Origin: Archangiaceae bacterium
Lineage (GTDB): Bacteria > Myxococcota > Myxococcia > Myxococcales > Myxococcaceae
NCBI GenBank assembly: GCA_016879935.1
Contig: JAACJQ010000356.1
Coordinates: 1-41,689 of the forward strand
Direction: 5' to 3'
Length of the DNA: 41,689 nt
The notes beneath the pieces are model-generated. The model did no database searches and had not been told where the DNA came from. It saw only the letters and a list, made by a program, of their open reading frames with translations. Both the position numbers and the translations under genes were made by a program. The stretch's first letter is position 1; every line of letters starts with the position of its first letter. Of the stretch, positions 18,653 through 31,632 are shown piece after piece.

Positions 18653-19207
18653 TCAAAGCTCCTGCACCTTGCCGCTGCGGAACGTCTTCGGGTCGAGCGC
18701 CCCTTCGCTCGCCTGCAGAATGAGCCCGGCAGCGCCGCTCGTCTCGGTCTGAGACGCGCGTGACCACGAGACGACCGCGATGCTCCCCTCGGCAGCCTGG
18801 GTCAGCACCTTCACGTCGTCGACCGCGTGCTGCAGCGAGACCGGCGTCGGATACCGCAGCGTGAAGCGGCCCAGCAGCACCAGCCCGGAGCCTTCGCGGG
18901 TGACTGCGCCGCCCTCACGCAGCTCGAGCCCCGCGGGGATGGTGTCGACCAGCACTTCGACCCGCTGCGTGGCGTCGATTCGCTTCTGCGCGAACTCGCG
19001 CAGCGTGACTTCACGCCCGTTCTTCAGGGTGACACGCGCCTCGGGGTTCTTCGCCGTCTTCACCAGCAGCGCGCGGTCGCTCTTGAAGGTGCTCACGATC
19101 TCCGCGTCGCCTGCCGGGTTGGCGTGCCCGAACGAGGTGAAGAGCACCTGCGGTGTCGCGGCACAGCCACAGAGAGAGACGAGCAGGCAGAGAAGCTGGC
19201 TTCGCAT
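18653..19207 (-). CDS. Small lipoprotein/secreted protein (184 aa), signal MRSQLLCLLVSLCGC
   Basis: Signal peptide ending in a Cys-containing lipobox-like motif. Balanced composition. The track ORF (to 19363) is an upstream extension. Confidence 0.55.
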   Translation of the reverse strand: MRSQLLCLLVSLCGCAATPQVLFTSFGHANPAGDAEIVSTFKSDRALLVKTAKNPEARVTLKNGREVTLREFAQKRIDATQRVEVLVDTIPAGLELREGGAVTREGSGLVLLGRFTLRYPTPVSLQHAVDDVKVLTQAAEGSIAVVSWSRASQTETSGAAGLILQASEGALDPKTFRSGKVQEL

Positions 19208-19287
19208 CACGCCGTCATACTCCGGCGTGGCGTCGAGGGAGCCGGAAGGTCGATGGCGACCGAACGCCGCCACCGACCGCCCTGAGG

Positions 19288-22200
19288 TCAGCCGCGGCGT
19301 CTGCGGAGCAGCCCAACGAGCGCAACGACGGCGAAGAGGAGCTGGCCGTCGACCGACGAGCATCCAGCGCAGCCGCCGCCGTTGCTGGCGCCACCACCGC
19401 CAGCGCCACCAGCCGTCGCGGAGCCACCCGCCGTCGCAGAGCCACCAGCCGTCGCAGAGCCGCCCGCCGTCGCAGAGCCACCAGCCGTCGCAGAGCCACC
19501 AGCCGTCGCAGAGCCACCAGCCGTCGCAGAGCCACCAGCCGTCGCAGAGCCGCCAGCCGTCGCAGAGCCACCAGCCGTCGCAGAGCCGCCAGCCGTCGCA
19601 GAGCCGCCAGCCGTCGCAGAGCCGCCAGCCGTCGCGGAGCCGCCAGCCGTCGCGGAGCCGCCACCGACTCCGCTCGAACCGCCTGCCGACGCCGAGCCAC
19701 CACCAACTCCGCTCGAGCCACCTCCGGCACCGGTGCCGGCGTCACTGCCTGCGTACCCGGCGTCCATCAGCGGCGGCAGGAAGCCACCATCGATTCGCAC
19801 GCCCGCGTCGAAGTACGCCGACGCCGACGTCACCAACACCACGCTCTCGGTCTGCCCGAAATACGCGGGCTCGGTGATGATGAACGTCGTCTGGCCTGCG
19901 TTCAGCGTGACGCCGATGTCGAGGTACTGCATCGGCGTGCAGTTGAGACCACACGTGTTGCTGCGGGTGACGTAGCCATTCGTCTGCACGACGTAGTCGC
20001 CGGACACGGGCGCCGTGAACGACCACACCACGTCGGGGTTGCCGGTGTAGCCACAGGTCGAGCACCCGCCGTCAGTCGTGCAGGTCGAGCCGCCGTCGCC
20101 TCCTCGTGGCAGGTCGTCCATCGCGTCGATCAGCGGCGTGGAGTTCTGCACGCCGAGCTGGAGCGCCTGGGGCAGCGTGCACGAATCGTTCGACGGCGGA
20201 ATCACCTGGTTCACCGACAGCGTGAAGTCGGTGCCGAGCGAGTAGGGCGACTCCACGACGACGAATGAGGGGACTCCCGCCGTGCCCGACATGACGCTCG
20301 ACGTCGACAAACAGCCTCCGTCGCAGCCTGCGCGCGCCCACGAGGTCGTGACCCAGCCTGCATCGGCGATGGCAGTCGCGCGCCACGCCCCGCTTGCAGG
20401 AGGCGTGAGCTGGTAGACGACGTCTGGCCCGCTCCAGAGCCCGCACGAGAAGTCGTCTTGCGCGCCGAGGGTGGTGCCAGAGACGGGCACGCCGACCGAG
20501 ATGGGCAGCGGCGCCGTGCAGCGGTCGTTCGGCGGAGGCACGATGAAGCGCGCGAGCACCTGGCCAGACGTGTACTCGTCGCCGTCGACGATGAGGTACG
20601 CCGTTTGTCCCGCGACGAGGTCGAGCAACATCGGGCCCCACGTCGTCGGCTGGCAGCCCGCGCCACAGGTGCCCACGCTCACCGAGAGCATGCCGGGTGC
20701 AGTGATGAGGTAGCGGCCCGTCGCCGTCGCGGTCAGTGAGAAGACGACGTCGGGGTAGCCGGCCGCGCCACACGTGCCGAGCATCGGCCCCGCGTCGACC
20801 GCACCACCACCGTCACCCGAGAAGGCGCCACCGCCTCCCGCGCCCGGCCCACCCGCCGTCGAGCCACCACCACCGTAGCCACCGCCGTACGCCGAACCGC
20901 CACCGTACGCGCTGCCACCACCGAAGCCGCCGGTGTTCACCCCGCCGTCAGGGAAGATGTCGTCGAGCGCGCCCAGCATCGCGACCGGAGCTCCGACGCC
21001 CAGGGTCAGCGCCTGAGGCGCCGAGCAGTTGTCGTTGGCGGGTGCCATCACCTGGTTCACCACGAATTGAAACGGCGCTTCGTCCCAGTTGCTGACCGAC
21101 AGCTTCACCGTCTCGCCAGCGTTCGCGCGAATCACGAGTCGGCTCTGGCAGAGGCTGTACGTGCCGCCGTCAGCGGGGCAGCCCCGCGTCGCTCCGAAGA
21201 TGACGCCGCCATCACCCGTCGTCGAGTTGACCGAGTACACACCCGCGCTGTTGGCGGTGAAGGTGTAGAAGACCTCTCCCGAGCCGTACGAGCAGAGGAA
21301 GTCAGGCGCTGCGCCGGCCGTCACGCCGTTCACCGGCACCCCGAAGGTGACCGGGAGCGCGTTCACGCAGAGGTCGTTCGACGGCACGGTGATGGGGTCG
21401 ACGCGGAGCGTGCCTGACTGGGCCACGTCTTCGATGGTGACGATGACCGGTGCACCAGCCGCGAGGTCGAGGTCGACGCGCCCATACCGGTTCGACGCCA
21501 GACACGCGCCAGCACACGAGCCCTGGCTCACGCTCATGCTGAACGACGAGGCGAAGCGGTAGCGCCCCGTGGCGGTCGGCGTGAAGCGGTAGTGCACGTC
21601 ACCCAGCCCCGCGGTGCCGCAGAACACGACGCCACCATCGGTGCCGGCGGCCGGCAGGTCGTCGACGGAGTTGGTGGTGTCGACCGCGACCGGCGTTCCC
21701 ACCGTGAGCACCGTCGGCGTGCTGCACTGGTCGTTCACCGGCGGCGTCACCGGCTGCGCGACGACCTGAAACGACCCCTCGCTCCACGAGGCGACCGCGA
21801 GTGAAGCGCTGCCACCCGGCGGCAACCGGAACGTCGTGCCCGAGGACCACCACGAGTACTGGCACACGAACGAGGTCGAGTCGCAGGTCGGAGCACCGGG
21901 CGTCACGACGAAGCCGCCCGCGTCCGAGCTTCCGTTCGCCGACGCCGTCGCGCGGAAGGTGCCACCGTCGGTCGAGGTCACCCGATAGAAGACGTCGGGG
22001 CCCTGGCCGCACGCCGTGTTCACGAGCGCACCGACCGTCGTCCCCACCACGGGCACGCCGATGGGCAGCGTCGTCGCGCCCGGGCAGAGGTCGTTCGACG
22101 GCACCACGAGCTGCTGCACTGAGAACGTCTGAACGCCGCTGCCGTCGAGCACCAGGAAGCTCGTCACGCCCGCCGTGAGGTCGAGGGTCAGCGCGCCGTA

Positions 22201-23001
22201 GTTCGACTGGCAGTTCGTGCCGCAGGTGCCGATGGAGTGTGAAATCGACCCGCCGCTCAGCTCGAAGCGATAGCGGCCGGTGACCGACGGCGTGAACGAA
22301 TAGACGAGGTCGGCCGCTCCACTGGAGCCGCAGCCGGAGTAGCCGCCGTCGGTGCCGCCGTCGCCGCCACCGCTGCCGCCGAACGTGTCGTCGAAGGCGC
22401 TGGTGAAGTCGACCGTGCGGGTGCCGACGGTGATGGGCGCGGGTGCTGAACACGTCTCGTTCGTGGCGGGCGTGAAGCTGCGCACCTCGAACGTGAACGG
22501 CGTCGGGGTGATGGTGTCGACGACGAGGAAGTGGCTGGTGCCGGCGTTCGCGCGGAAGACCAAGGTGCTGTCGGGCCAGGTGTCACAGGTGGTCGAGACG
22601 AAGCCGCCGTCAGCGAGCCCGCCGGCGTCGATGCCCGAGCACCCCGTGCGCAGCCGGTACACGCTGGGCTGGTAGCCCGAGTACCCCGCGTCGGATGACA
22701 CGGGCCCGGCGTCGACGAAGACGGCCGCGCGATACGCACCCGTCGAAGGTGCCGTGAACGAGTAGACGACGTCGGGGCCCCAGGTGCCGTACCAGCAGTC
22801 GAAGTCGTTGCTGGCCTCGACGGTGGTGCCCGTCACCACGGTGTTCGCCGGCACGGCGATGACACCACTGCAGCGGTCGTTGGCTGGGGCCAGCGCGGCG
22901 CTCTGTCGCTGAACGGGCTCGGGCGTCGCGGCGGGCGGCTCCATCGCGCACGAGCCGGCGAGGAGGACGACACAACAAGACAGCGCATAGAGGCGGTTCA
23001 T
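19288..23001 (-). CDS. Giant secreted surface protein (1237 aa): signal peptide, about 8 tandem PPC-like (pre-peptidase C-terminal-type) beta-sandwich modules each beginning P-x-N-D-x-C, a (GGSATA)n low-complexity stalk and a C-terminal MYXO-CTERM sorting signal
   Basis: N-terminus MNRLYALSCCVVLLAGSCA. Repeated module starts: PANDRCSG, ATNETCSAP, PSNDLCPGA, PVNDQCSTP, PSNDLCVNA, PANDNCSAP, PPNDRCTAP, PSNDSCTLP. C-terminus GGGCAGCSSVDGQLLFAVVALVGLLRRRRG (Cys-rich + hydrophobic + Arg cluster = MYXO-CTERM). Confidence 0.8.
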   Translation of the reverse strand: MNRLYALSCCVVLLAGSCAMEPPAATPEPVQRQSAALAPANDRCSGVIAVPANTVVTGTTVEASNDFDCWYGTWGPDVVYSFTAPSTGAYRAAVFVDAGPVSSDAGYSGYQPSVYRLRTGCSGIDAGGLADGGFVSTTCDTWPDSTLVFRANAGTSHFLVVDTITPTPFTFEVRSFTPATNETCSAPAPITVGTRTVDFTSAFDDTFGGSGGGDGGTDGGYSGCGSSGAADLVYSFTPSVTGRYRFELSGGSISHSIGTCGTNCQSNYGALTLDLTAGVTSFLVLDGSGVQTFSVQQLVVPSNDLCPGATTLPIGVPVVGTTVGALVNTACGQGPDVFYRVTSTDGGTFRATASANGSSDAGGFVVTPGAPTCDSTSFVCQYSWWSSGTTFRLPPGGSASLAVASWSEGSFQVVAQPVTPPVNDQCSTPTVLTVGTPVAVDTTNSVDDLPAAGTDGGVVFCGTAGLGDVHYRFTPTATGRYRFASSFSMSVSQGSCAGACLASNRYGRVDLDLAAGAPVIVTIEDVAQSGTLRVDPITVPSNDLCVNALPVTFGVPVNGVTAGAAPDFLCSYGSGEVFYTFTANSAGVYSVNSTTGDGGVIFGATRGCPADGGTYSLCQSRLVIRANAGETVKLSVSNWDEAPFQFVVNQVMAPANDNCSAPQALTLGVGAPVAMLGALDDIFPDGGVNTGGFGGGSAYGGGSAYGGGYGGGGSTAGGPGAGGGGAFSGDGGGAVDAGPMLGTCGAAGYPDVVFSLTATATGRYLITAPGMLSVSVGTCGAGCQPTTWGPMLLDLVAGQTAYLIVDGDEYTSGQVLARFIVPPPNDRCTAPLPISVGVPVSGTTLGAQDDFSCGLWSGPDVVYQLTPPASGAWRATAIADAGWVTTSWARAGCDGGCLSTSSVMSGTAGVPSFVVVESPYSLGTDFTLSVNQVIPPSNDSCTLPQALQLGVQNSTPLIDAMDDLPRGGDGGSTCTTDGGCSTCGYTGNPDVVWSFTAPVSGDYVVQTNGYVTRSNTCGLNCTPMQYLDIGVTLNAGQTTFIITEPAYFGQTESVVLVTSASAYFDAGVRIDGGFLPPLMDAGYAGSDAGTGAGGGSSGVGGGSASAGGSSGVGGGSATAGGSATAGGSATAGGSATAGGSATAGGSATAGGSATAGGSATAGGSATAGGSATAGGSATAGGSATAGGSATAGGSATAGGAGGGGASNGGGCAGCSSVDGQLLFAVVALVGLLRRRRG
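19405..19660. repeat. 18-bp tandem repeat (gcc[a/g]ccagccgtcgc[a/g]gagcc), about 14 copies, in-frame within the giant protein gene; encodes GGSATA repeats
   Basis: Directly visible near-perfect periodicity across 19405-19660. Translated minus strand gives GGSATAGGSATAGG... Confidence 0.85.
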
Positions 23002-23150
23002 CGACTCTCCCGGTTTCGTTCAGTGCTTCGACGCCTGAGCCTGCGAGCGTGAGACATCGGCCTGCCTCAGCGGCTGAGTGGCCGAGTCTGCCCCGCTCCG
23101 TTGCCGGGTGTGACCCACACGCGTCAATCAGGAGCCCCGAATGATGGCGC

Positions 23151-24239
23151 TCAACCCGGCTTCAAGCGTTCGCTCACCGCCTCGGCGATGCAGCGCTCCT
23201 CGTTGGTGGGAATGCACAGCACCTTCGCGCGCGAGACCCGTGTCGAGATGAGCGTCGAGTTCCTTCCGTTCGCCGCGTCGTCGATGGCGAGCCCGAGCCA
23301 GGCCAGCTTGCGCACGATGCGCCCGCGAATCGCCGACGAGCGCTCTCCGATGCCGGCCGTGAAGACGAGCGCGTCGAGCCCGCCGGCCGCCGTCGCCAGC
23401 GACGCCACTTCCCGCGCGCAGCGGTGCACGAAGTACTCGACTGCCTCTTTCGCGGCGCTCGACTCGTCTGCCAGCAGCGTGCGCATGTCGTTCGAGAGCC
23501 CCGAGAGGCCCTTCAGGCCCGACTCCTTGTAGAGGAGCGTCTCGAGCTCCTTCAGCGGCATGTGCTTCTGGTCGAGCAGATGGAGCAGCACGCCGGGGTC
23601 GATGGCGCCCGTGCGCGTGCCCATCGGCAGCCCGTCGATGGTCGAGAAGCCCATGGTGCTGGCGACGCTCCGCCCACCGTTGAGTGCGCACATCGACGCG
23701 CCGCTCCCCAGGTGCGCGACGACGACCTTGCCCTTCGCGACGTCGGGCGCGACGACCGCCAGCTGCTTCGCGATGAACTGGTACGAGAGGCCGTGAAAGC
23801 CGAAGCGTCGAATGCCCTCGTCGAAGAAGCGGCGGGGCAGGGCGTACGCCTCCTCGACGAAGCTGCGGGTGCGGTGGAAGGCGGTGTCGAAGCACGCCAC
23901 CTGCGGCACGTTGGGGAAGGCGGCGCGCGCGGCCTTGATGCCCTGCACGTTGTGCGGCTGGTGCAGGGGCGCGAGCGGCACGAACGACTCCAGCGTCGCG
24001 AGCACGGCGTCGTCGATGCGCGCGGGCGCGGAGTAGGTGACGCCGCCGTGCACGACGCGGTGGCCGACGCCGACGACCTCGACCTCGGCGGTGCGCGTCA
24101 CCTCGAGGGCCTTCGCCATCGCGGCCTCGCCGGTCTCTTCCAGCGTGCCGCGTGAGAGCTCGGTGACGCCGTCGTCGCCGAAGAGCGCGTACTTCACCGT
24201 CGAGCTGCCGGCGTTGAGCGTGAGAATCGCGGGGCGCAT
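23151..24239 (-). CDS. ackA: Acetate kinase (362 aa from the ATG at 24239; AAGGAG RBS overlapping the pta stop)
   Basis: ASKHA-fold N-terminus ILTLNAGSSTVKYALF (acetate-kinase-like LNxGSSSxK). Conserved internal HLGSGASMCALNGGRSVASTMGFS and EERCIAEAV. The 387-aa track ORF has a 25-aa artefactual extension. Confidence 0.9.
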   Translation of the reverse strand: MRPAILTLNAGSSTVKYALFGDDGVTELSRGTLEETGEAAMAKALEVTRTAEVEVVGVGHRVVHGGVTYSAPARIDDAVLATLESFVPLAPLHQPHNVQGIKAARAAFPNVPQVACFDTAFHRTRSFVEEAYALPRRFFDEGIRRFGFHGLSYQFIAKQLAVVAPDVAKGKVVVAHLGSGASMCALNGGRSVASTMGFSTIDGLPMGTRTGAIDPGVLLHLLDQKHMPLKELETLLYKESGLKGLSGLSNDMRTLLADESSAAKEAVEYFVHRCAREVASLATAAGGLDALVFTAGIGERSSAIRGRIVRKLAWLGLAIDDAANGRNSTLISTRVSRAKVLCIPTNEERCIAEAVSERLKPG

Positions 24240-24249
24240 GGTGGCTCCT

Positions 24250-25647
24250 TCAGGTCGAGGGAACGGCCGACTTCCCCGTCTTGCGGAAGTGGGCTTCGAG
24301 CACGGCGACCGCACAGCTCGCCAGCCGCGTGGAGTCGTCGTCGGCCCGGCTCGTCAACATGATGGGCACCTGCGCGCCGACGACGAGCCCGGGGCCTTCG
24401 GCGTGCGCGACGAACGCGAGCTCTTTGGCGAGCATGTTGCCCGACTCGATGTTCGGCACCATGAGCACGTTCGCGCGGCCGGCCACGAGCGAGGTGATGC
24501 CCTTCGTGCGCGCGGCCTTGAGCGAGAGCGCGTTGTCCATCGCGAGCGGGCCGTCGACGATGCCGCCGGTGATTTGCCCGCGCTCGGCCATCTTCGAGAG
24601 AATCGCCGCGTCGAGCGTCGAGGGCATGGCGGGGTTCACCACCTCGACGGCCGAGAGCACGCCCACCTTGGGCTGCGCGTAGCCCAGCGCCTGCGCGAGG
24701 AAGATGGCGTTCTGCACGATGTCGACCTTCTCCTCGAGCGTAGGCGCGATGTTGATGGCGGCGTCGGTGACGAGCAGCAGCTCGCTCAGGCCCGGCACGT
24801 CCATCACGAAGACGTGGCTGATGCGGCGCACGCCGCGCAGGCCGCCCTCCTTCTTCACCACGGGCTTGAGCAGCTCGTCGGTGTGCAGCTTGCCCTTCAT
24901 GAGCGCCTGCACGCTGCCCTGGTTCGCGAGGGCCACGGCCTTCTCGGCCGCGGGAATCGCGCCGCTGGCTTCGATGATCTCGAGCCCGTCGAGTGACGCG
25001 TTGAGCCCCTTCGCGACCGCGCGAATCTTCTCGACGTTGCCGATGAGAATCGGGCGAATGAGCTCGTGCTTGAAGCCGAGCAGCGCGCCCGCGAGCGACG
25101 CGTCGTCTTCGGGGCAGACCACGGCGGTGGCGAGCGGCTCGAGCGGCTCACACGCCTTCATCAGGCGCTCGATGTGCTGGTGGCGCACGACGGTGAGCGA
25201 AGGCAGTTCGTCGTCGGGCACCTCGATGCGCTCGGTCGGCGCGAGCACCTCGGCTTCTCCTTCGGCGATGACACGGCCGTCGGCGGTCTTCACCTCGGTG
25301 TCGAAGGTGACGCGCGCGTCGCCGAGCTTTCGTTTCACCGTCACCGTCGCGGTCACCGTGTCACCGATGCGCGCGCGCTCGGGGAAGCGGAAGGTCTGCG
25401 CGATGTAGCGCGTGCCCGGCCCGGGGAGCAGGTTGCCGAGCACCGCCGAGACCTGTGCTCCGGCCCAGAGCGGCGGCGCGACCGCGTCACTCTTGCCGTC
25501 GCCGTTCGGGTCGAACGAGGGCAGCACCAGCGGGTTCAGGTTGCCGCTCGCGTGCGCGAAGACCCAGAGGTCGTTTGCGGTGACTTCGCGGCGAATCGAC
25601 GCCTTCGCGCCGACAACGAGTTCGTCGTACGTGGTGTTTCGAGCCAT
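24250..25647 (-). CDS. pta: Bifunctional MaoC-like (hotdog) dehydratase / phosphate acetyl(butyryl)transferase fusion (465 aa)
   Basis: N-terminal 140 aa is a MaoC/hotdog fold (NPLVLPSFD...GTRYIAQTFRFPERARIGDTV). The C-terminal 320 aa is a PTA_PTB domain (GKLHTDELLKPVV...SGNMLAKELAFVAHAEGPGLVVGAQVPIMLTSRADDDSTRL). Immediately upstream of ackA on the same strand. Confidence 0.85.
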   Translation of the reverse strand: MARNTTYDELVVGAKASIRREVTANDLWVFAHASGNLNPLVLPSFDPNGDGKSDAVAPPLWAGAQVSAVLGNLLPGPGTRYIAQTFRFPERARIGDTVTATVTVKRKLGDARVTFDTEVKTADGRVIAEGEAEVLAPTERIEVPDDELPSLTVVRHQHIERLMKACEPLEPLATAVVCPEDDASLAGALLGFKHELIRPILIGNVEKIRAVAKGLNASLDGLEIIEASGAIPAAEKAVALANQGSVQALMKGKLHTDELLKPVVKKEGGLRGVRRISHVFVMDVPGLSELLLVTDAAINIAPTLEEKVDIVQNAIFLAQALGYAQPKVGVLSAVEVVNPAMPSTLDAAILSKMAERGQITGGIVDGPLAMDNALSLKAARTKGITSLVAGRANVLMVPNIESGNMLAKELAFVAHAEGPGLVVGAQVPIMLTSRADDDSTRLASCAVAVLEAHFRKTGKSAVPST

Positions 25648-25715
25648 GCACGCAGGCTACGCGCAGCCGACCGCGTCGCTGAGTGACTTTGGTTGAAGCG
25701 AGAATCAGATCAGCT

Positions 25716-25901
25716 GATCAACCCAGCGAGCGAGGCGGTCGCGAGGCCGAAGCCGTGAAGCGCGTCACCTGTGCGGCCGAGTCGAGCGCGACGAGCGAGC
25801 GGATCAACCCAGCGAGCGAGGCGGTCGCGAGGCCGAAGTGGTGAAGCGCGTCACCTGTGCGGCCGAGTCGAGCGCGACGAGCGAGCGGAACAACCCAGCT
25901 C
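25716..25901. repeat. 86-bp tandem direct repeat, 2 full copies (25716-25801, 25802-25887; 2 mismatches) plus a 14-bp partial third copy that runs into the stop of the PEGA gene
   Basis: Direct reading: gatcaacccagcgagcgaggcggtcgcgaggccgaag[cc/tg]gtgaagcgcgtcacctgtgcggccgagtcgagcgcgacgagcgagcg, then again. It lies between the PEGA gene stop (25900) and the pta start (25647). Confidence 0.9.
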
Positions 25902-27036
25902 AGAACTCCAACGACCAGACGCTGCCGGCGCCGTTCGGCGTCACCCACGCCGACGCCTTCGGCCCGCGGTACGACTGATACTTGTTCGGGTCTTCCCCGA
26001 TGATGAAGAGCGCGGTCGCGGCGATGGCCGACGCGAGGCCGACACCGCCACCGACGTACGACACGGCGAGCTGGGTGTTGATGGTGTTTCGCAGCGCTTC
26101 GGCCTCGGAGCGAACCGACTCGTCGCCTGCGGCCAGCGTGTCGCGCAGCGAGATGAACGAGCGCTCCGTGCCCGGCCCGTAGTTGTACTGCGCCTGGCCC
26201 TGCATGATGGCGAAGGTGGCGATGCCGGCGACCGCGACGCCGGTGGCGATGAACGCTCCGATGCGCAGGCCCCACTGCTTCTTCTCGTAGCCCTCGATGA
26301 AGTCGGGGCTGGGCATGAGCCGCACCGCTTCTTCCGTCACCTGGTCAGGCGCGATGCGCACCTGCTTCTGCACCGAGGTGAAGCCCTCTTTCTCGATGCG
26401 CAGCACGTGGGGCCCGCCGGGCACCGAGAGGCGCTGCAGCATGGGCGTGGTGCCGAGCTGCGTGCCGTCGACCTTCACCGCCGAGCCGTCCTCCGACGCG
26501 ATGACGACGAGGAAGCCCTGACGCCCGTTCAGCAGCGGCGCGATGAGGGCCGCCACGTTCTCCTGCAGCTTCGAGACGAGGTCGGCTTCGCTGCTGCCCT
26601 TCACCTCGCGCGAGCTCACCCGCTTGCCCGACTTCACCTCGACGATGGCGAGGTCGAGCGTGAGGCCCGTGGTCGCCTTCTTCGCGTCGGTCAGGCGCGA
26701 GACCCGGCCGTTGAGCAGAAAGTCGACGCCGAGCTGGCCGGCGATGTTCGACGTGCACGAGTCGTCGTTGCAGCCCAGCAGCTGACGCTGACGGTCGAGC
26801 GAGAGCAGGGCGCGCACCTGATCAGACGTCGTCACCGTGAACATGCCCGTGCGGTCGATCTCGGTCGCAACCGAACCCGCCAGCATCGCCGCGATGGGCT
26901 CGTTGCCCGCCGTCGTCTGGAAGTCGGGCACGGCCATCTTCGGGTTGGTGTTGCCGTCGGCCACCCGCGCCTGGTCGGCGATGGTCTTGTCGGGCGTTTG
27001 CGTCAGCAACGTGGCGAGCGTGATGGCGAGCAACAT
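25900..27036 (-). CDS. PEGA-domain envelope protein (378 aa): N-terminal signal/anchor, periplasmic domain, PEGA domain, C-terminal TM segment
   Basis: PEGA motif VKVDGTQLGTTPMLQRLSVPGGPHVLRIEKEGF. C-terminal hydrophobic helix LRIGAFIATGVAVAGIATFAIM. GGGGGAG RBS 6 nt upstream of the ATG. Confidence 0.65.
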   Translation of the reverse strand: MLLAITLATLLTQTPDKTIADQARVADGNTNPKMAVPDFQTTAGNEPIAAMLAGSVATEIDRTGMFTVTTSDQVRALLSLDRQRQLLGCNDDSCTSNIAGQLGVDFLLNGRVSRLTDAKKATTGLTLDLAIVEVKSGKRVSSREVKGSSEADLVSKLQENVAALIAPLLNGRQGFLVVIASEDGSAVKVDGTQLGTTPMLQRLSVPGGPHVLRIEKEGFTSVQKQVRIAPDQVTEEAVRLMPSPDFIEGYEKKQWGLRIGAFIATGVAVAGIATFAIMQGQAQYNYGPGTERSFISLRDTLAAGDESVRSEAEALRNTINTQLAVSYVGGGVGLASAIAATALFIIGEDPNKYQSYRGPKASAWVTPNGAGSVWSLEF

Positions 27037-27105
27037 CGGTGGACTCCCCCGTGGAAAAGACGAGGCAGCCTAACCGAACCCGTCTGGGCTGCAGCAACGT
27101 TCGGC

Positions 27106-27118
27106 GATCAACCCAGCG
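27106..27118 (+). promoter_or_regulatory. Third occurrence of the 13-mer GATCAACCCAGCG (core of the 86-bp repeat) in the divergent promoter region between the PEGA gene and hoxF; candidate operator
   Basis: Exact 13/13 match to the first 13 nt of both 86-bp repeat copies (25716, 25802). Located 40-100 nt upstream of the hoxF start candidates. Confidence 0.3.
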
Positions 27119-27220
27119 CACGGAACCCATGTCTGGCAGCCGGGAACGCAACGCTTGCGCTCGGCGGCGGGCCAGGGGCGTGACAGGCGGAGCGGCGCGA
27201 GGCGTGCAACAGGTCGTCGG

Positions 27221-28966
27221 GTGCGCTCCGCGTCCGACATCTTGAATGCGCACCGGGGGGACCCAACCCGGCTGGTGCAGATTCTCCGAGATGCGCAGCA
27301 CGCGTGTGGCAACTGGTTGCCGGCGAGGGTGCTCTCGGAGATTGCCCGCGGGCTCGGCCTGCCGCGCGCGCGCGTCGAGGGCGTCGCGGGATTCTACGCC
27401 TTCTTGAACCTCAAGCCCGTCGGCCGCTTCCGCGTGCTCGTTTCGGACAACGTGACCGACCGCTTCGCTGGAAGCGCCGAGACGTGTGGCGCGCTCTGTC
27501 AGCGCCTCGGCGTGAAGCGTGGCCACGTGCGCAGCGACGGCCGCGTCTCGGTCGACTTCACCTCGTGTACGGGGCTGTGCGACCAGGGGCCCGCGCTGCT
27601 GGTGAACGGCCTCGCGATTCCCCAGGTGACGGGTGAGCGGCTCGACCAGGTCGTCAGGCTCATCGAGGCCGACACTCCCGTCGACGAATGGCCGGCGGAC
27701 CTGCGGCGTGTGCAAGACGGCGTGCGTCTGCAGGGGCCCGTGCTCGGAGCGACGCTCGAGCCCGGAGCCGCGCTCCATCGTGTGCTGCATGCGAGCCCCG
27801 ACGACGTGCTCGCGACCCTGAAAGACTCGAAGCTGCGCGGCCGAGGCGGTGCCGGCTTCCCCGTGGCGACGAAGTGGGAGACCTGCCGCACCGCGCCTGG
27901 TGACAGCGTCGTCGTCTGCAACGCCGATGAAGGCGAGCCGGGTACTTTCAAAGACCGCGCGCTGCTCATGCGCCGGGCCGACCTCGTCGTCGAAGGCATG
28001 ACCATCGCCGCGCGCTTCACGGGCGCCACGCAGGGCTTCATCTACCTGCGGGGAGAGTACGAGTTCCTGCTCCCGCACCTGAACGAGGTGCTCTCGAAGC
28101 GGCGCGCAGCGAAGCTGCTCGGCACCGGCATCTGCGGCGACCGCGGCTTCGACTTCGACGTCGACGTGCACCTGGGCGCGGGCGCGTACGTCTGCGGCGA
28201 AGAGACGGCCCTGCTCGAGTCGCTCGAGGGCAAACGCGGCGTGCCCAGGCACCGCCCGCCGTTTCCCGTCACCCACGGTTACCTGGGCCGGCCCACCACG
28301 GTGAACAACGTCGAGACCTACGCCGACGCCGCCGTCATCTTCGGGCTGGGCCTCGAGGCGTGGAAGGCGCTGGGCACCGAGCAGTCGTCGGGCTCGAAGC
28401 TCTTGTCCATCGCGGGCGACGTCGAGCGGCCCGGCATCTTCGAGGTGCCGTGGGGCACCACCGTGCGTGAGGTGCTGAAGCTCGCAGGTGCCGGCTCGGT
28501 GAAGGCCGTTCAGGTGGGCGGCCCGTCGGGAGAGCTCATCTCACCGAAGGAACTCGACCGCCGCATCGCGTTCGAAGACCTGCCCTGCGCGGGCGCCATC
28601 GCCGTCTTCAACGAGTCGCGAGACCTGCTCGAGGTGGTGGTGAACTACGCCCACTTCTTCGCGCACGAGAGCTGCGGCTTCTGCACGCCCTGTCGCGTGG
28701 GCACGCACGTGGCGACACGTTCGTTGGACAAGCTGCGGCAGGGCCGCGGGTCGTCGGCCGAGCTGGCAGAGCTGGGCACCCTGACGAGGCTGCTGCGCGA
28801 CACCTCGCACTGCGGCCTCGGCAACACGGCGCCGAACGCGTGGCGCCACTACCTCGACAAGTTCCCCGACGACCTCGCGCGGCGGCTGCAGGCTGGCTTC
28901 GTGCCTGCCTTCGACGTCGACGCGGCGCTGGTGGCGGCTCGTACGGCGCGTGGAGAGACGCCATGA
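27221..28966 (+). CDS. hoxF: NAD-reducing [NiFe] hydrogenase diaphorase subunit HoxF (fused NuoE-like 2Fe-2S domain + NuoF-like FMN/NAD/4Fe-4S domain); GTG 27221 proposed, maximal ORF from TTG 27155 (603 aa)
   Basis: NuoE-type C-x4-C...C-x3-C (CGALC...CTGLC). NuoF motifs GRGGAGFP and NADEGEPGTFKDR. 4Fe-4S ESCGFCTPCRVG. Same length and architecture as the Cupriavidus SH HoxF. Stop overlaps the hoxU ATG. Confidence 0.9.
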   Translation: MRSASDILNAHRGDPTRLVQILRDAQHACGNWLPARVLSEIARGLGLPRARVEGVAGFYAFLNLKPVGRFRVLVSDNVTDRFAGSAETCGALCQRLGVKRGHVRSDGRVSVDFTSCTGLCDQGPALLVNGLAIPQVTGERLDQVVRLIEADTPVDEWPADLRRVQDGVRLQGPVLGATLEPGAALHRVLHASPDDVLATLKDSKLRGRGGAGFPVATKWETCRTAPGDSVVVCNADEGEPGTFKDRALLMRRADLVVEGMTIAARFTGATQGFIYLRGEYEFLLPHLNEVLSKRRAAKLLGTGICGDRGFDFDVDVHLGAGAYVCGEETALLESLEGKRGVPRHRPPFPVTHGYLGRPTTVNNVETYADAAVIFGLGLEAWKALGTEQSSGSKLLSIAGDVERPGIFEVPWGTTVREVLKLAGAGSVKAVQVGGPSGELISPKELDRRIAFEDLPCAGAIAVFNESRDLLEVVVNYAHFFAHESCGFCTPCRVGTHVATRSLDKLRQGRGSSAELAELGTLTRLLRDTSHCGLGNTAPNAWRHYLDKFPDDLARRLQAGFVPAFDVDAALVAARTARGETP

Positions 28967-29667
28967 GTTCGTTCACGCTCGATGGCGCCGACGTCGCCTT
29001 CACCGAGGGGCAGACCATCATCGAGGCCGCGCGCGTGGCGGGCCGCTTCATTCCCTCGCTCTGCGCGCACCCCGAGTTCCCCGCCCACGGCTCGTGCCGC
29101 GTCTGCACGGTGCTGGTGAACGGCCGCCCGATGTCGTCGTGCACCACGAAGGCCTCGGAGGGCCAGGTGGTCGAGAGCAACACGGCCGCGCTCAACCGCG
29201 ACCGGCAGGCGCTCGTGCAGATGCTCTTCGTCGAGGGCAACCACTTCTGTCCCGGCTGCGAGAAGTCGGGCGCGTGCACGCTGCAGTCGCTCGGGAAGGA
29301 GCTCGGCGTCACGTCGGCGGGCTTCGCGCACGAGTCGCCGACCCGCCCCGTCGATGCCTCGCACCCCGACATTCTGCTCGACTTCAACCGCTGCATTCTC
29401 TGCGAACTCTGCGTGCGCGCGTCGGCTGACGTCGACCACAAAGACGTGTTCGCGCTCTCGGGCCGCGGGCTGCACAAGCACCTCATCGTCAACGCCGAGT
29501 CGGGGCGGCTCGCCGACACCGGCATGTCGCTCGAAGACAAGGCGATGACGGTGTGCCCGGTGGGCGTGATTCTGAAGAAGCGGCAGGGCTTCTCGACGCC
29601 CATCGGCGCGCGGCGTGACGACGTGCAGACGCCGAGGCAGCGCCTCGAGGCGGGGAGGAAGCCATGA
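28963..29667 (+). CDS. hoxU: NAD-reducing hydrogenase diaphorase iron-sulfur subunit HoxU (NuoG N-terminal-like, 234 aa)
   Basis: 2Fe-2S CRVCTV motif. CPGCEKSGACTLQ and CILCELCVRA cluster motifs. GGAGAG RBS. ATGA overlaps with hoxF (28963) and hoxY (29664). Confidence 0.9.
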   Translation: MSSFTLDGADVAFTEGQTIIEAARVAGRFIPSLCAHPEFPAHGSCRVCTVLVNGRPMSSCTTKASEGQVVESNTAALNRDRQALVQMLFVEGNHFCPGCEKSGACTLQSLGKELGVTSAGFAHESPTRPVDASHPDILLDFNRCILCELCVRASADVDHKDVFALSGRGLHKHLIVNAESGRLADTGMSLEDKAMTVCPVGVILKKRQGFSTPIGARRDDVQTPRQRLEAGRKP

Positions 29668-30203
29668 CCGCGAAGGTGCGCGTGGCGACGACGTCGCTGG
29701 CCGGCTGCTTCGGCTGCCACATGTCGTTCCTCGACATCGACGAGCGCATTCTGCCGCTGCTCGAGCGCGTGACGCTCGACCGCTCGCCGTTGACCGACCA
29801 GAAACACGCAGGCCCGTGCGCGGTGGGGCTCGTCGAAGGTGGGGTGTGCAACGAAGACAACCTGCACGTGCTCCGTGAGTTCCGCGCGCAGTGCCAGGTG
29901 CTGGTGGCCGTCGGTGCGTGTGCCATCAACGGAGGCCTGCCCGCGCAGCGAAACCACTTCGAGGTCGGTGACCTGCTGCGCCGCGTGTACACCGAGGAGC
30001 CGGGGCTCACGCGCCGTGTGGTGCCCGACGACCCCGAGCTGCCGCTGCTCTTCGACAAGGTGCGGCCGCTGCACGAGCTGGTGAAGGTCGACTACTTCAT
30101 TCCCGGCTGCCCGCCGCCCGCCGAGGCCTTCTGGGCGTTTCTCTCAGACCTGCTCGACGGCAAAGAGCCGCGGCTGCCGAAGGGAGCGATTCGGTATGAC
30201 TGA
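29664..30203 (+). CDS. hoxY: [NiFe] hydrogenase small subunit HoxY (179 aa)
   Basis: Proximal-cluster motifs LAGCFGCHMS and GACAINGG...GCPP. GGAGG RBS. Overlaps hoxH start by 8 nt. Confidence 0.9.
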   Translation: MTAKVRVATTSLAGCFGCHMSFLDIDERILPLLERVTLDRSPLTDQKHAGPCAVGLVEGGVCNEDNLHVLREFRAQCQVLVAVGACAINGGLPAQRNHFEVGDLLRRVYTEEPGLTRRVVPDDPELPLLFDKVRPLHELVKVDYFIPGCPPPAEAFWAFLSDLLDGKEPRLPKGAIRYD

Positions 30204-31632
30204 GACGCTGCGACGCATCGCCATCGACCCGCTCTCGCGCGTGGAGGGGCACGGCAAGGTGACGCTGCTCCTCGACGACGCTGGCCACGTGCACGAGGCG
30301 CGACTGCACATCGTCGAGTTTCGCGGCTTCGAGGCCTTCATCGTCGGGCGCCCGTACTGGGAGGTGCCCGTCATCGTGCAGCGCCTCTGCGGCATCTGCC
30401 CCGTCTCGCACAACCTCTGCGCGGCGAAGGCGCTCGATGCCGTCGTCGGTGGCGTGCCACCTCCTTCGGCCGTGAAGCTGCGGCGCCTCATGCACGCGGG
30501 CCAGCTGCTGCAGTCACACGCGCTCCACTTCTTCCACCTCGCTTCGCCCGACCTGCTCTTCGGCTTCGACAGCGACATGGCCCGGCGCAACCTGATGGGC
30601 CTCGTCGAGACGCACCCCGAGCTCGCGAAGCAGGGCGTCATGCTGCGCAAGTTCGGGCAGCAGGTGCTCGAGGCCGTCTACGGCAAACGCATTCATGGCA
30701 CCGGCGCCGTGCCCGGCGGGGTGAACAAGCACCTGAGCCTCGAGCACCGCGACGAGTTCTCGAAGCAGCTGCCGCAGGTGAAGCAATGGGCCCTGGGAGC
30801 GGTGGCGCTCGCGAAGCAGCTGACCGAGGCGAACCTGGTGCGGCACGCGGGCTTCGGCACCGTGCCCTCGGCGATGTTGAGCCTCGTCGCGGCCGATGGC
30901 TCCCTCGACCTCTACGACGGTGGCCTGCGCGCGAAAGACGCCGAAGGCCGGCTGCTCTTCGACGGCCTCGACGCGTCGTCGTACCGCCAGCTCATTCAGG
31001 AAGAGGTGCGGCCCTGGTCGTACATGAAGTTCCCCTACCTCTCGGCGCTGGGGCCCGATGCGGGTTGGTACAAGGTCGGCCCGCTCGCGCGCCTGCAGGT
31101 GTGCGACCGCCTCTCGACGCCGCTCGCCGAGGCCGCGCGTCAGGAGCTCATCGCGAGCTCTCCGCGCACCATTCACGCGCCGCTCGTCTTCCACTGGGCG
31201 CGAATGATCGAGCTGCTCCATGCCGCCGAAGACATCGAGCGGCTGCTGCAAGACGACGCGCTCGTTCAGGGCGAGCTGGTCTCGACGGGCGAGCGGCAGC
31301 GCGAAGGCGTCGGCGTCATCGAGGCGCCGCGCGGCACGCTCATTCATCACTACGAAGTCGGTGACGACGACCTCGTCACCCGCTGCAACCTCATCGTCTC
31401 GACGACCAACAACAACCAGGCGATGAACGAGGCGATTCGGTCGGTGGCCCGCCAGTACCTCGACGGGCACCGCGTGACCGAAGGGCTGCTGAACCACCTC
31501 GAGGTCGCCGTGCGCGCGTTCGACCCGTGTCTGTCGTGCGCCACGCACGCGATGGGGCAGATGCCGATGGAAGTCACGGTGGTGGACTCTTCTGGAGCCG
31601 TGCTGTCGCGGGCGGAACGGGGGGCGTCGTGA
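30196..31632 (+). CDS. hoxH: [NiFe] hydrogenase large subunit HoxH (group 3d-type, 478 aa) with C-terminal cleavable extension
   Basis: N-terminal Ni-binding RLCGICPVSH (R-x-C-G-x-C). C-terminal DPCLSCATH (D-P-C-x-x-C-x-x-H) followed by a 24-aa tail removed by the HoxW protease. Confidence 0.92.
   Translation: MTETLRRIAIDPLSRVEGHGKVTLLLDDAGHVHEARLHIVEFRGFEAFIVGRPYWEVPVIVQRLCGICPVSHNLCAAKALDAVVGGVPPPSAVKLRRLMHAGQLLQSHALHFFHLASPDLLFGFDSDMARRNLMGLVETHPELAKQGVMLRKFGQQVLEAVYGKRIHGTGAVPGGVNKHLSLEHRDEFSKQLPQVKQWALGAVALAKQLTEANLVRHAGFGTVPSAMLSLVAADGSLDLYDGGLRAKDAEGRLLFDGLDASSYRQLIQEEVRPWSYMKFPYLSALGPDAGWYKVGPLARLQVCDRLSTPLAEAARQELIASSPRTIHAPLVFHWARMIELLHAAEDIERLLQDDALVQGELVSTGERQREGVGVIEAPRGTLIHHYEVGDDDLVTRCNLIVSTTNNNQAMNEAIRSVARQYLDGHRVTEGLLNHLEVAVRAFDPCLSCATHAMGQMPMEVTVVDSSGAVLSRAERGAS

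Follow-up and report, generated by a model that had tools for sequence, protein, structure and literature searches.

Bacterial minisatellites are intergenic repeats with units of approximately 10–100 bp, which gain and lose copies through replication slippage or unequal recombination. REPs are imperfect palindromes of 20–40 nt that occur in hundreds of dispersed copies, and the usual target-site duplications are shorter than 12–16 nt. A repetitive sequence of M. xanthus was reportedly described in J Bacteriol in 1991; a search of the literature on intergenic repeat families of Myxococcus gave no usable description. MIRUs are units of 40–100 bp that are arranged in tandem between co-oriented genes and start at the stop codon of the upstream gene (in part from PMC12548453).

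The locus compared here with these systems is an array of 86-bp units, each consisting of a 16-nt direct repeat (DR) and a 70-nt core (X). It was found in the window, which is the whole 41,689-nt stretch of DNA that was analysed, between a gene for a PEGA-domain protein and the pta and ackA genes. The array is probably a young, lineage-specific, non-coding insertion that was turned into a two-copy minisatellite and has no dedicated function. The features of the locus were as follows.

25900–27036, minus strand: gene of a PEGA-domain protein of 378 aa with a weak DUF3280-like N-terminal part (Pfam PF08308, E = 3.1e-11)
25712–25899, no strand: whole array, 2 full 86-bp units and a 16-nt partial copy (Tandem Repeats Finder, repeat-pair search)
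25884–25899, no strand: third copy, which is partial and comprises the DR only (minus strand GCTGGGTTGTTCCGCT), adjoining the PEGA stop codon at 25900–25902
25798–25883, no strand: PEGA-nearest unit, DR at 25798–25813 and core X at 25814–25883
25712–25797, no strand: pta-nearest unit, DR at 25712–25727 (minus strand GCTGGGTTGATCAGCT) and core X at 25728–25797
25708–25719, no strand: perfect 12-nt palindrome GATCAGCTGATC, which straddles the pta-side array boundary and matches itself on the opposite strand
25648–25711, minus strand: ancestral part of the spacer, alignable with relatives (alignments)
24250–25647, minus strand: pta, PTA_PTB protein of 465 aa with a weak MaoC-like N-terminus (Pfam PF01515, E = 7.6e-44)
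23151–24314, minus strand: ackA, acetate kinase (Pfam PF00871, E = 4.9e-100)

The placement of the array between the PEGA gene and pta-ackA, which had been proposed in an earlier sequence-only reading, could be confirmed through the Pfam identities of these genes. Orthologues of the PEGA protein share 94–95% amino acid identity in L018, L019, and L024 (the compared loci are designated by L numbers), and homologues of the PTA_PTB protein are annotated in their sources as 'bifunctional enoyl-CoA hydratase/phosphate acetyltransferase'. As judged from the sequence, the true start of acetate kinase is probably located downstream of the listed GTG, because the genes of relatives encode 359–367 aa. 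Between the PEGA stop and the pta ATG lies a spacer of 252 nt (25648–25899), and the array indeed fills most of it, as had been stated (188 nt, 75%).

Tandem Repeats Finder revealed one array at 25712–25899 with a period of 86, 2.2 copies, 96% matches, and a score of 348, which was the only array with a period above 36 in the 41.7-kb window. The repeat-pair search aligned the units 25712–25797 and 25798–25883 with 97% identity and returned the 16-nt third copy at 25884–25899. Furthermore, array sub-patterns of 31 nt and 43 nt each occurred exactly twice in the window and in 0 of 100 dinucleotide-preserving shuffles; the 86-bp repeat is thus not due to chance, and the 2.2-copy tandem repeat of the earlier reading was borne out by both searches and by the shuffles. 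Three of the 86 positions distinguish the two units, namely G/T at 25801/25715 and TG/CC at 25838–9/25752–3. The statement that they differ only at cc/tg is correct in the phase that starts at 25716, but the phase of Tandem Repeats Finder adds T25715 versus G25801. The partial copy had been thought to overlap the last codons and the stop of the PEGA gene; this had to be corrected, as the similarity extends only to 25899 and the copy thus adjoins the stop at 25900–25902, which reads TCA on the plus strand and leaves the last two bases of the earlier interval (25900–25901) as mismatches.

The architecture of the array could be written as DR16-X70-DR16-X70-DR16. On the gene strand, the order is TGA, GCTGGGTTGTTCCGCT, X, GCTGGGTTGATCCGCT, X, GCTGGGTTGATCAGCT, followed by GATCTGATTC. 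The 70-nt core X consists of CGCTCGTCGCGCTCGACTCGGCCGCACAGGTGACGCGCTTCAC(CA/GG)CTTCGGCCTCGCGACCGCCTCGCTC, and its G+C content is 74%, compared to 69% in the window and 61% in the remaining spacer. No two of the three DR copies are identical, and they follow the consensus GCTGGGTTG[A/T]TC[A/C]GCT. An in-frame coding repeat is impossible since 86 equals 3 × 28 + 2. The palindrome at 25708–25719 lies exactly at the pta-side array boundary, and only GATCAGCTG could be found as its counterpart in relatives; it may mark a breakage or slippage hot spot, or its position may be a coincidence.

The exact Pta and PEGA proteins are absent from the public gene index, and no conspecific genome was found. 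Close Pta homologues with 82–95% identity were gathered by protein search and their contigs were compared, and eight more loci came from searching GTDB genomes and JGI metagenomes with PEGA. Among these eight are metagenome-assembled genomes (MAGs) labelled as Myxococcaceae bacterium (L018, 95% amino acid identity), 'Archangium gephyra' (L019, 94%), and Myxococcus sp. The resulting set comprised 25 orthologous loci, 264 kb in total, taken from metagenomes and from MAGs of related Myxococcaceae, which supports the myxobacterial origin assumed in the earlier reading. The PEGA-pta-ackA synteny was kept in all related loci, and the PEGA-pta spacer measured 49–132 nt, except in one lineage, where it consists of 508 nt of unrelated sequence. 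The individual lengths were as follows.

Window: 252 nt
L020: 132 nt
L002: 113 nt
L001, L019, and L024: 81 nt
L018 and L006: 68 nt each
L004: 64 nt
L009: 62 nt
L015, L021, and L023: 56 nt
L025: 55 nt
L022: 49 nt
L012–L014: 508 nt, unrelated sequence

In the four nearest relatives (L001, L019, L024, and L018; approximately 90% DNA identity), both flanks of the array could be aligned and exactly 172 nt (2 × 86) were missing. In these relatives, the PEGA stop is immediately followed by one remaining 16-nt DR-like sequence (GCGTCGTTGATCAGCT), and the DR at 25712–25727 is the window copy that most resembles it, as compared with L001/L019. Nothing similar to X could be found in the orthologous spacers, including the 49–132-nt spacers of the outgroups. 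Conservation of the duplication in close relatives, which had been proposed as a check, was therefore not observed, as the four nearest loci lack even one unit.

The pta DNA identity was 90.4–90.8% between the window and L001/L018/L019, 92.5% between L018 and L019, and approximately 85% for the outgroups. These values place the window as sister to a clade without X, with outgroups that are also without X, and one gain in the window lineage is accordingly the shortest history. It is quite unlikely that X was ancestral to the clade of the window, L018, and L019, and that it was precisely deleted in the relatives via recombination between DRs while the window kept and duplicated the older element. 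The single DR of L001, L019, L024, and L018 is exactly what such a deletion would leave behind, and only one extra step would be needed, since the window is sister to the clade without X and a single loss suffices. However, the outgroup spacers hold nothing like X, so that a gain and a loss have to be set against one gain. Moreover, all three DR copies of the window share a window-specific TGG where L001/L019 have GTC, which indicates that the copies arose within the window lineage, and the two X copies are 97% identical. The divergence between the units (3/86, 3.5%) compared to that of the alignable spacer against L001 (approximately 16/81, 20%) indicates that the duplication is much younger than the split.

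Longer spacers were also observed elsewhere among the 25 loci. In L012 (9493–10000; also in L013 and L014), which belongs to the lineage of P0007 with a Pta of 86% identity, the 508-nt spacer contains a called ORF of 100 aa, for which no Pfam match was obtained. The spacers of L002 (113 nt) and L020 (132 nt) also hold unrelated extra sequence. No relevant tandem repeats could be detected in the longer spacers of L012 and L020. As judged from these sequence comparisons, the stop-proximal end of the PEGA-pta spacer appears to have repeatedly accepted insertions across lineages.

The relation of X to sequences elsewhere was evaluated at several scales. No second copy of X was found in the window and the 25 related loci (264 kb) using blastn-short and nhmmer. 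An exact 24-mer of X gave 0 matches in 185,579 GTDB species genomes, including two relatives of approximately 90% identity, an exact 25-mer gave 0 matches in JGI metagenomes, and both patterns gave 0 matches in IMG/VR; such exact scans detect copies down to about 90% identity and would miss those below it. Plasmids and phages likewise gave 0 matches by blastn in its distant mode. The dispersed copies in related genomes for which a search had been suggested with the earlier reading were thus absent from the 25 related loci and from the exact-k-mer scan of GTDB. X was also considered as a fragment of a coding gene or as part of ORFs called elsewhere, and this was rejected, as its six-frame translation matched nothing at E ≤ 0.01 among 5.8 billion proteins. 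Templating of X from nearby sequence, in direct or inverted orientation, was rejected as well. When X and its reverse complement were compared with 500 nt on each side by Smith-Waterman alignment, 23–489 of 500 dinucleotide shuffles reached the observed score. The 86-bp array was the only intergenic array with a period of at least 30 in the 264 kb of the clade.

These searches bear on the reading of the unit or its core X as a copy of a small non-autonomous mobile or dispersed element (MITE-, MIRU-, or REP-like), which would have duplicated a 12–16-nt target and been amplified in tandem. DR-X-DR resembles an insert with a target-site duplication, with the relatives representing the empty site with one copy. 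A long imperfect hairpin can be drawn for X, which is new sequence without a local template, and the spacer is a hot spot of indels elsewhere (508 nt in L012–L014, 113 nt in L002, and 132 nt in L020). The unit size and the location next to a stop codon, between two genes of the same orientation, further recall MIRUs (PMC12548453). Nevertheless, this reading is doubtful, as neither the 41.7-kb window nor the 264 kb of related loci held a second copy, the exact 24/25-mers were absent from GTDB genomes, JGI metagenomes, and IMG/VR, and plasmids, phages, and proteins yielded nothing. In addition, the X hairpin is no more stable than those of shuffled sequences, an ORF that links the PEGA stop to the pta start in the manner of MIRUs is lacking, and a direct repeat of 12–16 nt is generally considered long for a target-site duplication.

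By analogy with MIRUs, the unit could be the first sighted copy of an undescribed small non-autonomous element of an uncultured Myxococcaceae lineage that inserts in a MIRU-like manner at the stop-codon ends of spacers, which is unlikely. An element of this type would have used a target with the GTTGATCAGCTG palindrome, duplicated 12–16 nt of it, and undergone tandem amplification, and further copies would be expected in the genome; this chain of events is likewise improbable. If the unit were dispersed in the full genome, it would represent a new small repeat family in Myxococcota.

The array was further evaluated for signals of function, as the sequence-only reading had offered duplicated operator or UAS sites, an attenuator, and an sRNA. 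No Rfam match was obtained for the whole window at the gathering score or for 25550–26000 at E ≤ 10. Folding of the whole spacer gave z-scores of −0.36 for the gene strand and −1.93 for its complement, both within the shuffle distributions. The proposed folding of one unit yielded energies inside the shuffle distribution too, with z-scores of −0.77 to +0.74 for the single unit and X on both strands. Structural covariation cannot exist, because the array is absent from all relatives. No sigma-70-like promoter was found in the spacer, and none of the 33 sigma-54-like matches of the window (TGGCAC-N5-TTGC, ≤ 2 mismatches) was located in 25600–25910; the total of 33 is below the shuffle expectation. 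Within 25300–26300, no intrinsic terminator could be detected on the gene (minus) strand, and the only terminator-like site was on the plus strand at 25675–25687, outside the array.

An inverted repeat was observed between 25668–25680 and 25815–25827 (also 25729–25741, the end of X), with 12 of 13 positions complementary. The similarity or complementarity of X to its flank was equalled or beaten by 122–128 of 500 shuffles, and the match is therefore treated as chance. Four window-specific substitutions in 25668–25680, compared to L001/L019, all raise the complementarity to the end of X; this could be a template-switch correction of a quasi-palindrome, or chance.

A cis-regulatory device for pta-ackA or PEGA, acting as an operator or UAS, an attenuator or partner for pairing with the pta leader, a 3' stabiliser of the PEGA mRNA, or an sRNA, is very unlikely. 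In favour of such a device, the array spans −65 to −252 relative to the pta ATG, which is the place expected for upstream activator sites. In the minus-strand MFE fold and centroid, the pta-proximal unit is paired through its 3' end with a region approximately 20–35 nt upstream of the ATG, and the four substitutions in 25668–25680 enhance exactly this pairing. However, every relative lacks the array even though the synteny and the pta-proximal motifs are conserved. Together with the shuffle results for the pairing, the lack of an Rfam match at E ≤ 10, the ordinary gene-strand fold of the spacer (z −0.36), and the absence of sigma-54-like and sigma-70-like sites from the spacer and of an intrinsic terminator from the minus strand, this speaks against each of the regulatory functions proposed earlier.

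The part of the spacer next to pta is conserved. A motif AAGTCACT at 25682–25689 (−42 to −35 from the pta ATG) and a motif CGTAGCCT at 25654–25661 (−14 to −7; general form CGTAG(C/G)(C/G)T) were conserved across 11 related spacers, and CGTAG..T at −14 to −7 was invariant. Both motifs are downstream of the array and intact in the window. The insertion took place upstream of the conserved 45 nt by the pta ATG and left the motifs untouched; it was therefore probably neutral or nearly so, and the lack of conservation and the lack of signals point in the same direction. No Shine-Dalgarno sequence was evident upstream of the pta ATG (25648–25711). TAGCCT/TAGCGT within the −14 to −7 motif fits the TAnnnT shape of a −10 element only 6–7 nt before the ATG, and from this sequence pattern, pta may be transcribed from a promoter of its own into a leaderless mRNA. 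The conserved upstream region of pta in this clade, being without a Shine-Dalgarno sequence, merits mapping of transcription starts.

The non-coding nature of the array, as claimed earlier, was supported. In the six-frame translation, no ORF of the MIRU type connects the two genes. A single frame on the gene strand reads through; it comes in from within the PEGA gene, offers CTG but no ATG, GTG, or TTG at the PEGA stop, and ends at 25718–25720, 70 nt before the pta ATG. The 185-aa ORF at 25718–26275 had been described as spurious and antisense; the first part of this description agrees with the lack of a Pfam match, but the ORF is on the minus strand, as are the genes, and represents an out-of-frame overlap of the PEGA 3' end. 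Long ORFs were also called at 25771–27183 (plus strand, 470 aa), 26822–28276 (minus strand, 484 aa), and 28608–30074 (minus strand, 488 aa). Relative to the PEGA and hox genes they are antisense or out of frame, no Pfam match was found for the two minus-strand ORFs, and all three are probably typical spurious ORFs of high-GC DNA. For annotators, the 185-aa and 470-aa ORFs that cross the array should be taken as spurious.

An assembly artefact that created the duplication, although not X itself, from a single 86-bp unit is extremely unlikely. In its favour, typical short reads are too short to span the 188 nt of the array. Against it, the units differ at three positions and the DR copies all differ, whereas a mis-assembly would have produced exact copies, and X is in any case genuinely new sequence when compared with the relatives. 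Tandem repeats are usually collapsed and not expanded by assemblers, which also counts against an artefact.

The preferred reading, a young insertion turned into a minisatellite, can be arranged in three steps. A piece of 70–74 nt would have been inserted at the stop-proximal end of the spacer, beside or duplicating a 12–16-nt target, giving DR-X-DR. Slipped-strand mispairing or unequal recombination between the direct repeats would then have doubled the 86-bp unit to DR-X-DR-X-DR, and three substitutions (2–3 events) may have accumulated since the duplication. As a consequence, the PEGA 3' region and intercistronic spacer would have grown from approximately 80 to 252 nt, presumably with little or no phenotypic effect. 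This explanation accounts for the step from one unit to two, and the arrival of the first 70 nt stays outside it.

Several other features of the window were observed. A hoxFUYH-like cluster for an NAD-linked [NiFe] hydrogenase is located at 27155–31632 on the plus strand, divergent from PEGA-pta-ackA, with the domains Complex1_51K/2Fe-2S, Fer2_4/NADH-G, Oxidored_q6, and NiFeSe_Hases. The hydrogenase block of approximately 4.3 kb (27336–31596) is present in L004, L020, L021, and L023 and absent from the nearest genome relatives L018 and L019. Downstream of ackA, approximately 5 kb (18095–23162) are without a counterpart in L018/L019. An ORF at 19288–23001 (minus strand) encodes a protein of 1237 aa with only a weak GBD_T9SS_assoc match, and Tandem Repeats Finder revealed a coding tandem repeat at 19390–19719 with 18/36-bp units in 15 or 8 copies. 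A 17-bp unit (CGCACTCGCCCGCACGA) is repeated 3.5 times with 95% identity at 14325–14383, in the intergenic spacer 14287–14410, where alignments with relatives break. This spacer adjoins an MVP-like gene at 14411–16561 (minus strand), which encodes a 716-aa bacterial MVP homologue (MVP_shoulder E = 8e-31, Vault_3 weak) that is also present in L004.

The array itself carries little biological weight. It provides an example of spacer growth by insertion and slippage in which the conserved promoter-proximal part was spared, and the locus would be a convenient strain-typing (VNTR) marker if conspecific isolates exist.

Among the known kinds of repeat, the array shares with MITEs and with REP/BIME sequences a small, GC-rich, non-coding, and imperfectly palindromic core flanked by direct repeats. 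As a REP it was rejected for its wrong size and its lack of copies, since the unit measures 86 nt and the core 70 nt and no second locus is present in the 41.7-kb window. Unlike a MITE, it has neither terminal inverted repeats nor a hairpin stability beyond that of shuffles, and the repeat-pair search reported no inverted pair at the ends of the 86-bp units. Each X is flanked by a 12–16-nt DR, one copy of which is present at the empty site of the relatives, but this length is atypical for a target-site duplication. MITEs are multi-copy, whereas X was found at one locus only across the window, the related loci, the exact-k-mer collections, plasmids, phages, and proteins.

The array resembles MIRUs in unit size, tandem layout, location in a spacer between co-oriented genes, and start at the stop codon of the upstream gene. 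However, MIRUs are dispersed, and no other copy of the array was detected in the window, the 25 loci, GTDB, JGI, or IMG/VR. MIRUs further carry a short ORF coupled to the neighbouring start, which the array does not have, and the host phylum of the array, Myxococcota, is a different one.

RecA-independent slipped-strand duplication offers a close parallel, as DR-X-DR-X-DR is the product expected from the misalignment of 12–16-nt DRs that are 86 nt apart; the origin of the first X is outside its reach, the relatives having only the DR. Taken as a whole, the array most likely belongs to a known and ordinary kind, the intergenic tandem duplication or bacterial minisatellite. It differs in being the single such locus in the 264 kb of the clade, and as copy-number polymorphism among strains defines a minisatellite or VNTR, the comparison here is that of 2.2 copies with 0 in species-level relatives. 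With that kind it shares the head-to-tail 86-bp units, the intergenic position, the identity of 96–97%, the partial end unit, and the DRs that bound the units as in slippage products.
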